A DNA stretch of 64,000 nucleotides from Eledone cirrhosa (taxonomy: Eukaryota): the NCBI GenBank assembly GCA_964016885.1, contig OZ024741.1, forward strand, positions 96,906,001 to 96,970,000, in the 5' to 3' direction. The notes under the pieces were generated by a model. That model did no database searches and was not told where the DNA came from. It saw nothing but the letters and a program-made list of their open reading frames with translations. Positions 25,357 through 57,618 of the stretch are shown in pieces (the first letter of the stretch is position 1; each line of letters begins with the position of its first letter). The position numbers and the translations under genes were made by a program.

Positions 25357-25439
25357 TTCTTTTACTGACGGTTTCACCTTACTAAAGATTGGAGATCCCT
25401 AGGGAATTCCAATAGAAATGTCCGGATCATCGGAGAGCA
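25357..25439 (-). ncRNA. Type I hammerhead, mutated second copy
   Basis: Same motif as 25842-25924 but core reads CCGATGA and stem III has a mismatch. Confidence 0.55.
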
Positions 25440-25841
25440 TTTTCCTTACCTAGGACAAAAGTCCCGGGAACGGCAAAATATATGGCCATCTGCCAGCTAG
25501 CATAGTATCGAATGGGGCCGTAAACTTGACCTATGCCTGAACCAGCCCTTAGTAGAAGAGAAGTAAACATAGACGTATTGTCTATCTCGCCACGAAAAAT
25601 AGCAGCTAAATAGAACAACAAATTTGTTCTCTACATAACGGAGAATATTAAAAGAGGTTAATATCTCCACAGGTACTAAGTACCCCTGGAAATATATAGG
25701 GTCTCTATGATACAGTGGTTGGTCTATGGTATTAATTTGACATACCAGAACTATAAAATTGAGATAAGCGGAGCAAGCAAGATTCAAATAATTTTTAAAA
25801 ATAAATTCAAAAATATAATTTAAATATTTACATATTCCATT

Positions 25842-25924
25842 TGCTTTTACCGACGGTTTCACCTCACAAAATATTGGAGATCCCTCGGGACTTCCAATGG
25901 AAATGTTAGGATCATCAGAGAGCA
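25842..25924 (-). ncRNA. Type I hammerhead ribozyme
   Basis: tgctct-CTGATGA-[tcct...attgga..ccc ga ggg..tccaat...aggt]-GAAA-ccgtcgg-TA-aaagca. Confidence 0.75.
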
Positions 25925-28479
25925 TTTTCCTTACCTAGGACAAAAGTCCCGGGAACGGCAAAATATATTGCCATCTGCCAGCTAGCACAGGATCGAATGG
26001 GGCCGTAAACTTGACCTATGCATGAACCAGCCCTTAGTAGAAGCAGAATATATATATATATATATATATATATATATATATATATATGCAAAACGTACCG
26101 CACATCTGGAAATCACTTTAGTTTCGGTGAACTAAGGTTGTGCTATTCATTCCAGTGCCCACTGGAGTGCAATAAAACAGCGAGACAGAGGACAAGTTGC
26201 GACTTTGTGTGAATTACACAAATAAAGACAAAACATAATGACAAATATTGCTACAAACCAATAGGTGTCGACCGTAAAGGAAGGGACAGAAATGCGTGGA
26301 ATGGCTGCTTAACCAGAAGAAAAAAAATAGAAAGTAGAAAAGTAGACAAACATGTTTTGATTACAGTCATACATACGAAGACAAAGAAGAATAGCAGAGA
26401 GGTGGTGGGAGAGAAAGACAAGAGGAAGATAAATATTGGACTGTGTAAAGTCTATTTTTGATAGGGTTTAGAAGAGAGCCTGCGTGGCTAAGAATTTCGA
26501 ATACGCATAGAACATATATACATAGTAATTGTGTGCAGAGTAATTGTGTGCATTTCTTTGTGTGTGTGTGTGTGTGTGTGTGTGTGTGTGTGTGTTTGTG
26601 CATGCACGTATGTACAGCAAGGTGAAAGCGCGTCACAGAGTGTTTAGGTTGCTTAGCCTTTGAAGAAAACACTTTAATACATTAATTCACGTCGCGTAGA
26701 CGAAAATGGGTCTCTGAGAACTACGTTGACAGTGCACATGCTTGTGGAATACTAACCTATTTACAGTATCATGAGGTTTTGTTGATTGAATCAATCAGAG
26801 CACAAAATAAAACATGTAACTGGGCATTACATCACTTTCTAAAAGGAAATCTCAGCTCCAGTAAATACATTTTCGAGCTATTCACTAAATGCTATCTAGC
26901 CGCGGAATCATATTCTTCCGCCTTCTTTGAATGTAATTCTACAGCTGGTGCCACGCATGTTCACGATGATCGCAGTTGTTGGACGACATACTCACCTCAC
27001 ATAAGCTGTATAAGTTCCTCCATAGGGAGAAACTACTTCCTTGATCTCATATTGAAAAGTATGTAATATAATTCACGAGCCTAATGTAACTGGATATCAG
27101 CCCATTAAAAGTTCAATGTCCTATAGGAATTTTAGGACACAGAAAATTGCGCATCACTTCGAATGTTCAATGATAACAATGAAGAAAAAAACTGTTGCAT
27201 CAGCCTCAATATCTAGGGCTTAAATATAAAACTACGTACGTCAATGTTGCCTGCAAATTACACTCTGAATGCGAATAAACATCTATATAATTCGGCAGTA
27301 CACTTTCTACAAATAATGGCCTGAATGCGTAGATGAATGCCTGCATCCAGTCTGATTCGATCACTTACGGAAAGTTCAACATCAGACTGGGTAACAAATG
27401 ACATGGTATAAAACTGGCAATGGATTGAAAAAATTACTGATGCAGAACTGATGATCTGCGGGTTGCGTGATCTCTGATCTATAATGATTATATCTCTACC
27501 TAGCATACATGGGGTTTTCCCCTGCTAAAATCACGGCTGAAATGGGGTGTGGCCGTGATTAGTACAAACAACATGAGTATCTTTCCAACTGTGCTTGACA
27601 GCGAGCTGTATTACCAAAAAAGCTGAAGAAATTTGCTTAAAACTCCGTTATAGCGTTTACATAGAATGACATTTCAATGAAGAATCCTGGTGGTTGCCAA
27701 CGTATATGACAAGACTGCGAAAAGTTTCAGAGAGCAATAAATTAACGGTAAAATTTGGAGGAAATAGAATATAGTGAAGCAAATATTAAAACTATAAATC
27801 TATGAAATACATTATGTACGTCTATTGAAATAATCCACAGACTCTGAGAGATTACTCAGCGCTCCCAGAAGCACCCTGTGTACATCTGGAAATGCTGTTG
27901 TGATCGGACTTAGGAGATCAGCAACGTATTTTCTCCACCTCGCGTGGATACACCACTCTGAAGAGTGAACACCAGACACGTTCACGGCGGAGCTGCTCTG
28001 CTAGAGAGCGGGTCGCAATTGGCAGACAGCGATACTGCCAACAGATATGATGGCTAGTTGCGATATAAGCAGACGCTGGTTCACGAATAAGCAGCTGGGA
28101 ACAACAGCGGTAAAATACTAGTAAAGATGAAGCAATTGGTGACACTTGTAGCTACCAAGAAAACTCCCATAATACAGTACCTAGCAACGACGAGGCAAAT
28201 AAACGCCGTCTCTAAAAAAGCCTAGTCATTGCAGGTTTGTCAGAGTACCAGATTGCTGACTGTAACGAGTAAGATCACACAAACTGAAACTTCAATATGA
28301 TGAGGGAAAAAAAGAAGAATCATACCGCATCACCCTTATCGTGGTTAACAAGGGACACGTAGTGGCCTTAGGTAGAGGTGCATGTTCAAAAAATATATTG
28401 GTCTCCATTTCATACTGCAAAATGTAGAGATGGGCTTGCGACATGTCTGGGAGGCGTGGGATGAACGCACAAAGATTGC

Positions 28480-54650: not shown

Positions 54651-54941
54651 TATCGTTTTATAAATATAGTTTACATTTATTTAATATCATTTTATATATA
54701 TATATATGTGTATATATATAAATATATATATATATATATATATATATATATATATATATATATATATATATATATATATATATATATATATGATGAATTT
54801 TTTAATATAAGGAACATGTTCTTTGTTTTTATTCAATGTTTTCATTAATATATATATATATATATATATATATATATATATATATATATTAATGAAAACA
54901 TTGAATAAAAACTAAGAACATGTTCCTTATAATAAAAAAAA

Positions 54942-55066
54942 TCATCATTTTACGATCGTTTCTAGGATATATATGTGTGTTGGTATGTATATCATATAGA
55001 TCTATGTAAACTATCAGAGGAAATATACATACCTTTACATATATATGCTGTCTTCAGAAATGATGA
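54942..55066 (-). ncRNA. Type I hammerhead with long stem II insertion (pLTR copy A)
   Basis: tcatcattt-CTGAAGA-[long hairpin]-GAAA-cgatcg-TA-aaatgatga. Confidence 0.8.
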
Positions 55067-57482
55067 GATTTGTTTATTGAAAAAAAACAACAAAATTTAA
55101 TATAATAGGTCTGTTTTGGAACAGGTTTTAAATTGACCAATAGAAAAGTAGTAAGAGGTCAAGTTGATAGAATAGTAGTAGTAGAAATTTAATTTAGGGT
55201 TAGAGGGGTGCAGATATATGTTTTGAATGGAAAGAATACTTTGAATGAAAAGAATACTTTGGGGATGAAAAGAAGTCAAACCGGAGAAGGGTACACGAAA
55301 ATTTGATGTTATTAAAGAATAGTGTTAAAAACGAAGGAAAGTAACATTTTAGGGTAAATGAGAAATACCAATCTTATTTAAACCACAAGGAATCTAGATC
55401 TATAACAAGATATTAAATTAATTGATAGGTATACTTATAGGGATAAATTTATATTACATCATATGGATGTGATAAATAAGAATTAGATGTTATTAAAGAA
55501 TGTTGTTAAAAACGAAGGAAAATAAAATGTTGGGATAAGGGTAGTAGTGAGAAATACCAATCTTATATAAACTACAAGGAATCTAGATTCATAACAGGAA
55601 ATTAAAATAGTTTATATGTATACTTTTAGGTATTAATTTTAGGAAAAGAGAGCTGTAAGAGGGAAATAAAATTATGAGGTTCTCTGTAGTAAAGTACTAA
55701 TTATAGGTTAACTAAATAAAAAAAAAACTAATTATAATAATATGTAAAATATAGTGTAATGTGTATATTAATTAGGTTTATAATATTTCAAGGTTCTTCT
55801 AATTCTATGATTGCAATATATAATTAATTCTTGTCGCTTATTTAATAGGATATCCTTAGATTTCATTATTTCAAAAAGTTCCTGGTAACATAATTTACAC
55901 TCATATCTGTTATTTTGATAAGGGGTGGCCGTTTTGAGCCACTCCATGTCAGGTTGTAATCGATATTCTTTTTTCTATAATTATTAATTGTTTCAGCCAA
56001 TGATGTTGTATTAGCTAATGCGCCATTTTTAAAACTATGTTTGTGGGTATTAAATCTTACTTTAAATTGGTTAGACGTAGCTCCTATATATGAATAAGTG
56101 GAGTCCTTAGTGCTAATTTTACATTTATAGACTATGTTATTAATAAGACAATTCCCCTTTAATGGGTAATTTATTTTGTTTCTACAGTTACAACCATTCG
56201 TAAATATTATATCAGGGGAGTTAGTCAAATTTGGTGTGGAATTTACTCGACTTGTTATATGTGAAGGAGATGGTGGTATGTTGCGGTTTATTTTAGTATT
56301 ATGGTTGGTTTGATGTGTTGGTGGTATATTCGTGTTACATTTTTACATTTTTATGCGTTGTACGCACTTATATTTTGTTGTATATTTTTGGTAGTGGAGT
56401 AGGAAAATTTGACAGTTGATCTCTTTAAAATTTGATGGTATTTATGGTTTGGCGGGAAATTTTTCTCTAGGATAGTAAAACATTTTTTAGGGATATTATC
56501 TTTAATTTGTAGATTAAATGGAGCATTATACCAAGTAACCCATCTATTACGGATTCGATATTGTTTTTTATATTTATACGATGTATCAGGATGTTTACTA
56601 AGGGAGTTATTATTAGTGAATTTATTATATATAGGTTTAGTTAGATTAACTAATTTAGGTGTTTTAGTCTGATTATTAGGAATTTTGTTAGTAATGTTGT
56701 TAACATATATTGGAGTATTAGGATGAATAGTTTTTTGAAAGTCATTATGTTTTATGTGAGAAGAGGTAGAGAAATTAAGTTTTAGGTTGGTATAATTGGG
56801 TGTAGTGTGAGTGGCATTTAGGTGTGGGTTTTTCATTTGGTGTTTGTTGGTAATATCGGGTTGTATGTTTGAAGTATTATTGGTGCGAGGTATATAGACT
56901 AATTTGTTTTTGTGGCCGCTTCTAGCTAAAGCGCATTTTTATCGAATACATCCTGGTTAGATGAAAGGTTAGATATTCTGAGTGAGATATTATATGCTAG
57001 GTTTTTAAGGATAGATCTAGGGTGATTGGCTTGTGAGTGTATGTAATGTAAGTTTTGGTTGGGTTTATGGTAAGGTTGGTAGATACCCGTAGATAAGTCT
57101 AAAGTTATATCTAGGAAATTAACTATTTTACTGGTGTTTTCAAATGTAATAGTGAGATTATAATAGCCTTTGAGCAAAGTTGTAAAGTTTTTTTATTCTT
57201 TTCAATTTCTGATAGGCTAAGATTAGTGGAAAGAAGAAGACAGTCATCACGATATAAACCACCTTTAAGGAGGGGAAAAGAAGAATTTATGTTAAATAGA
57301 AGAAAGAGGCCCACAAGATCGGTAATTTATAAGTTTGCACACCTCTACCCCTAAATTAAATTTCTACTACTACTATTCTATCACCTTGACCTCTTACCAC
57401 TTTTCTATTGGTCAATTCAAAACCTCTTCCCAAACAGACCTCTTATATTAAATCTTTGTTGGTTTTTTTCAATAAACAAATC

Positions 57483-57618
57483 TCATCATTTCTGAAGACA
57501 GCATATATATGTGAAGGTATGTATATTTCCTCTGATAGTTTGTAATATTTGTACATAGATCTATATGATATACATACCAACACACATATATATCCTAGAA
57601 ACGATCGTAAAATGATGA
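57483..57618 (+). ncRNA. Type I hammerhead with about 100-nt stem II insertion (pLTR copy B)
   Basis: 9-bp stem I tcatcattt/aaatgatga. Stem II atatatatgtg/cacatatatat and ggtatgtatat/atatacatacc. Palindromic stem III acgatcgt. Confidence 0.82.

Follow-up and report, generated by a model that had tools for sequence, protein, structure and literature searches.

The stretch of Eledone cirrhosa DNA analysed here (contig OZ024741.1, positions 96,906,001 to 96,970,000 of the forward strand; all 64,000 nucleotides are hereafter called the window) belongs to contig 2, in a genome of 3.0 Gb, and carries a series of hammerhead ribozyme motifs in ten repeat families, seven of which are attached to Penelope-like elements (PLEs). 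The first 23 kb hold tandem copies of a long interspersed element (LINE) and hardly any (TA)n, and TA arrays are frequent from 24.8 kb onward. The hammerhead core consists of C3-U4-G5-A6-N7-G8-A9, G12-A13-A14, A15.1-U16.1 and H17; our strict type I descriptor asked for this core, for at least 4 Watson-Crick pairs each in helix I and helix II, and for pairing of 15.2 with 16.2, while helix III was left unconstrained. Between 25301 and 57700 the scan returned 7 motifs under the strict setting and 8 under the relaxed one, with none in the rest of the window. For the same interval, 100 global and 100 local (300-nt) dinucleotide shuffles gave a strict mean of 0.02 with either shuffle type (maximum 1) and relaxed means of 0.07-0.24, and the reversed sequence gave 0. 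The original prediction, which described this interval as a dense collection of hammerheads, therefore holds when density is judged against shuffled sequence, whose counts are not similar, and does not hold against the rest of the genome (see below).

A hammerhead-like motif or part of one is present at all 15 of the sites that had been listed. Among the eight given as having a canonical core, those at 25842, 32859, 37546, 54581, 54942 and 57483 pass the strict scan, that at 47906 passes only the relaxed scan, and that at 37172 passes neither because helix II is damaged in this copy; 17 of 19 other copies of its family (family C) pass the strict descriptor. A further strict motif, at 52967-53079(-), had been overlooked. 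Once the variant sites are counted, the families number ten (A to J) rather than about eight, and two sites that had been called partial, 38122 and 42295, belong to a family (H) with a complete U3-A8 core. Families A-F and J have the canonical type I core, which is absent from families G (A4) and I (no A9). Rfam returned no hit at the gathering score for the window motifs; at E<10 it gave 193 hits, and the best 150 of these include no hammerhead family. The analysis confirms that the motifs are genuine type I hammerhead folds, together with damaged and variant copies, in ten repeat families. The features, in order along the window and including the reverse transcriptase (RT) and GIY-YIG endonuclease regions of three PLEs, are:

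25273-26047: family A tandem non-coding repeat, 485-bp unit, with the 25842 motif in the first unit
25357..25439, minus strand: motif of the second family A tandem unit, with U4C and a helix III change, both private to that copy
25842..25924, minus strand: family A hammerhead, canonical core, 9-nt near-palindromic helix III, helix I mismatch
32645-33100: short insert carrying the family B motif at 32859
32859..32901, minus strand: family B minimal hammerhead, extra base after A9, G10.1-C11.1, 2-bp helix III
35826..36271, no strand: family G fold-back inserts, cores at 35893 (plus) and 36179 (plus) with inverted partners, helix I 5' strand missing at the fold
36382..36432, minus strand: family G copy with damaged helix II
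36485-36518, plus strand: further family H 3' half
37172..37267, plus strand: family C hammerhead with a helix II region of 63 nt; this copy is damaged at 10.1-10.2
37546..37600, plus strand: family D hammerhead, helix II C-C mismatch, palindromic helix III of 8 nt; truncated Hydra-type PLE end
38070..38272, no strand: family H fold-back insert with the ribozyme 3' half only
42281-42950: insert holding the family H motif at 42295
42295..42391, minus strand: family H complete hammerhead, U3-A8 core, extra base before position 3 in this copy
42950..44731, plus strand: PLE1, 5'-truncated, RT and CCHH-type GIY-YIG (RVT_1 E 7e-9, GIY-YIG E 4e-5)
44437..44471, plus strand: family I hammerhead relic, helices I-III present, U3 opposite G8, A9 absent
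44773..48115, plus strand: PLE2, broken Neptune-type element; the related copy L133 shows RT, a CX4CxxC linker and a CCHH GIY-YIG
47906..47947, plus strand: family B hammerhead at the 3' end of PLE2, one helix I mismatch, relaxed scan
48287..48337, plus strand: family G variant, U4A, U10.1-U11.1, U17, closed helix III; Hydra-type PLE end
52967..53079, minus strand: family J hammerhead, 84-nt helix II region, strict scan
54582..54649, plus strand: family E hammerhead, helix II C-C mismatch, palindromic helix III
54890..57803, minus strand: PLE3, a broken, 5'-truncated Hydra-type element whose head is inverted, with (TA)n on either side
54942..55066, minus strand: family F hammerhead at the PLE3 3' end, 9-bp helix I, helix II of about 90 nt, 8-nt palindromic helix III
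57483..57618, plus strand: family F hammerhead in the inverted 5' pseudo-LTR (long terminal repeat) of PLE3

Helix II, which is up to about 115 nt long, was examined for covariation in the D/E group with 29 sequences (9 representatives) chosen by sequence pattern alone. Positions 1-3 and 5-9 are paired in 78-100%, most of them with 2-4 pair types, position 4 is a C-C mismatch in 8 of the 9 representatives and C-U in the other, and slid controls of the pairing drop to 0 at several positions. This pattern suggests selection on structure. The same C-C mismatch is found in family F, and a U-C in family C. Helix III is self-complementary in 11 of the 12 distinct motifs against 1.3 expected, by way of seven different palindromes, which bears out the palindromic stem III already noted in several motifs; families G and H have a closed helix III of 4-5 bp rather than a palindrome. 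The combination of an extra base between 9 and 10.1 with G10.1-C11.1 is limited to family B, the other families having A-U, G-U, C-A or U-U at this pair. Strict scanning of other copies retains 27 of 29 top copies in family F and 10 of 19 copies in family J, and family D has 5,948 exact 32-mers.

The motifs had been described as embedded in (TA)n, which is correct at the 3' end and weaker at the 5' end. We sampled the genome in 59 evenly spaced 10-kb pieces (590 kb) and 20 neighbouring pieces (200 kb) and looked for (TA)5 within 250 nt of each motif, 70 of 74 motifs having enough flank to measure. An array lies downstream in 65 of the 70 and upstream in 35. The corresponding figures are 23% for randomly chosen positions, 39% for positions within the same loci, and 17 out of 95 for a SINE-like (short interspersed element-like) control repeat, which is not enriched beside (TA)n. 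The motif count also tracks the TA-array count (rho 0.59 over the 79 pieces), and the 21 pieces with 3 or fewer arrays have no motif. The 3' ends of the inserts are fixed and abut (TA)n 17-260 nt past the cut site, at +17 and +97 in family H, near +50 and +188 in F and near +80 and +190 in A, with similar pairs in C and D. A (TA)n preference is in print for Hydra, Naiad and Neptune elements, among them Hydra-1_Obim from Octopus bimaculoides (Craig et al. 2021, PMC8557442), and the tail of an anole element has been explained by two internal reverse transcription starts (Frangieh et al. 2024, PMC11167929), a tail which the fixed paired ends seen here match. With this spacing and these fixed ends, the idea that the motifs are PLE-type hammerheads with (TA)n as their landing site proves right, though largely known.

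A coding link had been put forward for three families and proves broader. In our carrier test, a PLE protein match had to lie within 1.9 kb upstream of the motif, on the same strand and with no TA array between, with a flank of only 1.5 kb at most loci. Such matches were found for family B (6 of 25 copies), D (4/24), E (1/21), F (8/30), G (7/59), H (4/24) and I (13/16), a few of them stemming from a neighbouring insert of another family. At short loci the endonuclease motif was seen upstream of D in 0 of 4 and of E in 0 of 5, and longer loci together with tblastn then showed the link; relatives of the window's family E motif flank Hydra-type open reading frames (ORFs), and ORFs lie between inverted motif pairs in 6 of the 8 family E loci fetched for that purpose. 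These data show that seven families (B, D, E, F, G, H and I) sit 3' of PLE RT/GIY-YIG coding sequence, five of them Hydra-type, one probably Neptune-type by its linker (B) and one unplaced (I). RT followed by GIY-YIG in one ORF is seen in family I by Pfam and in E, F, G and H by motifs and homologues, while D is represented by its endonuclease end only and B in pieces. A CxCx5C linker is present in E, G and H and degenerate in the window's F copy, the CCHH motif is absent from E, F, G and H, and DKT replaces DKG in F, G and H. Judged by these motifs and by 237 RT-like homologues of the family G protein, mostly of about 700 residues, families E, F, G and H (and D by its endonuclease end) probably belong to the Hydra clade. 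The family B relative L133 has a Neptune-type linker (CX4CxxC) and CCHH, and family I has CCHH and DKG with a linker spacing unlike Neptune's CX2-5CxxC. Pseudo-LTRs, inverted heads and the tail that characterize PLEs are seen among these families.

This coding link also changes the reading of the short inserts, which had been thought to be largely non-coding derivatives. Since seven families are tied to coding sequence, we read most of them as 5'-truncated or folded-back ends of coding elements; copying would begin just past the ribozyme and in many cases end, or turn back on itself, after no more than a few hundred bases. Family A alone has the appearance of a non-coding, retrozyme-like unit in tandem. 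It has no ORF and a same-strand spacing of 480 bp occurring 4 times among 42 copies (one tandem counted twice, in the window and again in its locus), and is mostly a dispersed monomer with PLE-like tails.

Three families depart from the canonical core. In family G, which has 21,952 exact 26-mers, A4 is present in 38 of 39 copies with the family flank and U4 in none, while all three helices and a bulged 9-bp extension of helix I are kept. Its canonical-core matches number 696; of 30 examined, 28 proved to be junctions of fold-backs, and the flank typical of the family was present in 2. In a separate observation, family G often folds back inside its near-palindromic core (L170-L199), which leaves canonical-looking cores that have no helix I. 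The state of family I seen in the window is family-wide: two extra bases before position 3 and the absence of A9 are found in 29 of 29 copies, with U3 opposite G8, and there are 2,836 exact matches. The family of PLE1 is young, its copies, like the top copies of family I, being 97-99% identical. Families G and I are predicted to cut poorly because pairwise mutagenesis of another hammerhead gave low activity for all motif changes except the 3-8 swap (PMC9901934). In family H, 53 of 87 copies have no 5' half; among the 34 that retain it, 20 have U3-A8 and 10 have C3 facing A8. U3-A8 is already known in PLE hammerheads (PMC4209133). That family H might be a half or splice-split ribozyme was considered and rejected, since a 5' half with a U3-A8 core is present 55 nt upstream.

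Taken together, we consider it highly probable that these type I folds mark the 3' ends of ten repeat families, of which seven are PLE-attached, and that they cluster at TA arrays through insertion and the start of copying. PLE insertion at (TA)n with a copying start just downstream of the ribozyme likely explains the clustering there. From published work on other PLEs, the element endonuclease would nick (TA)n and reverse transcription would start at two internal sites, so that even a truncated copy of 100-300 nt would still carry the ribozyme. Within a tandem or inverted transcript, a pair of ribozymes may join through the palindromic helix III, perhaps with an element protein, and thereby process the RNA, dimers being the only form in which cutting is predicted. 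Insertion probably does not depend on cleavage, since cutting would be weak or lost in families G and I and yet these elements have spread.

Several results weigh against this account. The folding energy is better than that of shuffles (z below -2.5) in only 2 of 11 motifs (family D at 37546, z -2.6, and family F at 57483, z -3.2), and in the minimum-energy homodimer fold helix III pairs between strands in 3 of 7. The inserted copies are probably neutral, and therefore conservation would reflect the source elements, not these copies. Families A, J and C show no PLE link within 1.9 kb (A 0/35, J 0/23, and C 1/27 with a TA array between), and family A is the weakest case, with 0 of 29 other top copies passing the strict scan. 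Pfam gave no hit on three Hydra-type ORFs, among them the family G protein; it likewise gave none on two pieces of PLE2, and the GIY-YIG match of PLE3 (E 0.012) falls below its cut-off. Finally, the 5' ends of copies coincide exactly with the predicted cut site in 2 of 1016 cases, and 5 fall at -3 to 0, like neighbouring positions; the distribution peaks at -43, -29, +20 and +24, which may be alignment effects. Cleaved RNA as the template was accordingly rejected, there being no pile-up at the cut site among these 1016 copies. This agrees with the anole finding that unprocessed RNA is the template, and has no direct bearing on cleavage.

It is possible, if doubtful, that the folds are kept for a non-catalytic job such as protein binding, setting the RT start or RNA pairing, with few or none cutting in vivo. 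The presence of U4A (G) and loss of A9 (I) among young, abundant families and the lack of any excess of 5' ends at the cut site would fit this, as would the reports that anole ribozyme mutants insert normally in vitro with RNA reads that do not end at the cut (PMC11167929) and that Naiads spread without canonical hammerheads (PMC8557442). However, most families retain all core bases, several have exchanged C3-G8 for U3-A8 jointly, which fits selection for an active core, and the palindromic helix III is kept across differing sequences. We regard it as unlikely that the cores of G and I are themselves active variants, helped by an element protein or by tertiary contacts such as the extended, bulged helix I of G. 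Family G does keep its three helices and the helix I extension, U4C reportedly leaves enough activity in a viroid (PMC3088659), and the anole ribozyme cuts only with its protein (PMC11167929); against this stand the mutagenesis data cited above, the additional U10.1-U11.1 and U17 of family G and the missing A9 of family I. Completion of the family G core by splicing, with the altered bases as 3' splice site and a 5' exon supplying the canonical half-core, seems very unlikely, although a pyrimidine run and AG overlap positions 3-5 of the G core, the family appears to have an intron, and in Drosophila virilis the Penelope ribozyme is preceded by an intron that runs up to its helix I (PMC4209133). 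In contigs from three presumed DNA runs of one sample, GT..AG joints at locus L050 skip about 875 and 843 nt at less than 1% of local depth, with short sides of 23-26 nt, which fits a retained intron in family G with rare spliced copies. These joints lie in the 3' region of G and stop some 100 nt short of the core on its upstream side, with none at the core among the best 15 of 112, and the donors seen would not yield a canonical core. None of the joints listed has the AG within the G core as its end point, so that a splice-built ribozyme is unlikely, and the restoration of a canonical core by splicing is not supported; the canonical-core matches, nearly all fold-back junctions among those examined, also speak against it.

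A special standing of the window, as a hot spot or as a cluster of ribozymes selected for a host role, is extremely improbable. Its interval of 32.4 kb holds 7 strict motifs, where the sampled pieces average 2.4 for that length (44 motifs in 59 pieces; 1 in shuffles), but it was picked around motifs, the copies are truncated, lie on both strands and are in many cases damaged, and the 200 kb of neighbours hold 17 motifs (0 in shuffles), or 2.8 per 32.4 kb. Because the chance of reaching 7 motifs is P 0.07 for three random pieces (the chosen interval), 0.23 for six (the whole window) and 0.09 for three TA-matched pieces, we do not retain the view of the window as an unusual collection; it is a typical TA-rich stretch of its genome. 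The sample extrapolates to about 223,000 motifs genome-wide (bootstrap 132,000-330,000). The exact pattern of one subtype has 81,155 matches genome-wide against 202 for the reversed pattern, and DNA searches gave at least 1,500-2,500 candidate places for each family queried (F, G, A, H, I, J and C). As 126,247 hammerhead motifs are reported for the axolotl (PMC7229834), the number estimated here is similar in magnitude or greater.

The window's own cluster is of little importance, and the interest lies in the population to which it belongs. We suggest, as a joint proposition somewhat short of even, that the genome holds one of the largest ribozyme populations (about 2x10^5 hammerheads in dozens of PLE families, many of an undescribed design that combines the C-C mismatch, a very long helix II and the 8-10 nt palindromic helix III), and that two young autonomous families within it have fixed U4A or the loss of A9 while keeping their helices, a natural experiment on whether cutting by PLE ribozymes is needed or proceeds with a novel core aided by protein. 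Why PLEs carry hammerheads has been called unclear (PMC8557442). Sister families with canonical, compensated (U3-A8) and apparently crippled cores are present here in thousands of copies each, and the need for cleavage is therefore comparable side by side in one genome. Because Rfam reports none of the motifs, natural ribozymes in genomes of this kind are more numerous than the catalogue shows. Should even a fraction of 10^5 transcribed motifs be able to pair and cut, there might, speculatively, be a bearing on host RNA stability.

A number of further observations were made. Possible additional core variants include two copies of a family with U4C and an otherwise good fold (L133:4759, L141:4736), which may be a third family-wide variant, and at least 2 more U3-A8 families with a 10-11 nt palindromic helix III, some in short tandems (L111, L158, L163, L166, L142). 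A tandem 482-bp unit with one canonical hammerhead per unit is present in 7 copies (L141:456-3400; L151; L153) and is well formed and retrozyme-like; a decayed relative may lie at 61085(-) in the window. At 32455-32492(+) there is a decayed family B-like motif with only the core 3' half recognisable. The family A unit carries at 25683-25702(+), on the strand opposite the ribozyme, a family I-like stretch without the interval from position 5 to G12, which is common to other family A copies and may be no more than a hairpin. At 31395-31478, 36800-36960 and 48168-48256, TA arrays are adjoined by nearly perfect hairpins of 80-160 nt formed by fold-back; they are probably inverted element ends, and they cause spurious microRNA hits. 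In four runs of unrecorded kind from one study, which yielded neither ends nor strand on the two stretches compared, the depth profile of X4 was steeper than those of X1-X3.

The LINE array occupies 3732-22900(-) as three to four head-to-tail copies of 6 kb that are 66-84% alike, the first having open frames of 712 and 1195 amino acids (endonuclease, RT, zf-RVT); no TA arrays or hammerheads lie inside it, and presumably it resembles a target-specific L1/Tx1-type element. Copies of the abundant SINE-like repeat that served as control lie at 30050-30140, 45080-45240, 45430-45520, 49490-49640 and 58600-58720.

A study by Lunse, Weinberg and Breaker (RNA Biol 2017) is said, by its title, to treat numerous small PLE-tied variants with reduced stem III that cleave as dimers. 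In the literature searched, which left out this study and some figures and supplements, there are no cephalopod hammerhead counts, no natural U4A hammerhead family and no family-wide loss of A9; the helix II C-C design with an 8-10 nt palindromic helix III is likewise unreported there, though the 2017 study may include that mismatch or examples from cephalopods. A repeat paper on O. vulgaris (PMC13282606) gave no match for the terms 'hammerhead' or 'ribozyme' in its available text.

A close likeness is to the PLE hammerheads of Cervera and De la Pena (2014, PMC4209133), which are also type I, lie in the pseudo-LTR, occur in many families per genome, mostly as single motifs in truncated copies, and show palindromic helix III and U3-A8; family B fits that consensus. 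Unlike these, families C-G have neither the base added after A9 nor the G10.1-C11.1 pair; position 4 of helix II is C-C in D, E and F (U-C in C), and helix III is 8-10 nt and helix II up to about 115 nt long. The genomes described there have 2,000-9,000 hammerheads each, whereas here one subtype alone exceeds 81,000. The Hydra clade (PMC8557442) shares the C-terminal GIY-YIG without CCHH, CxCx5C, DKT and (TA)n insertion; canonical hammerheads are given there as universal in Hydra, whereas U4A is fixed in family G, and one octopus Hydra family is listed against at least 5 Hydra-type families in the window. Poseidon of Anolis carolinensis (PMC11167929) resembles these elements in its fixed internal 3' ends, AT-rich targets and ribozyme near the reverse transcription start. 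It belongs to another clade, and its ribozyme has been assayed, proving protein-assisted and dispensable for insertion in vitro, whereas the motifs here are known from sequence. Non-LTR retrozymes (PMC7229834; bioRxiv 10.64898/2026.07.22.740005) recall family A as a non-coding tandem with one type I motif per unit, but the unit of family A is 485 bp rather than 170-400 nt, is mostly a dispersed monomer and has a weak fold, and most motifs here belong to coding elements. What the present genome adds to these systems is the sheer number of motifs in this lineage, the layout of helix II, and two families that have multiplied widely with cores that look crippled.

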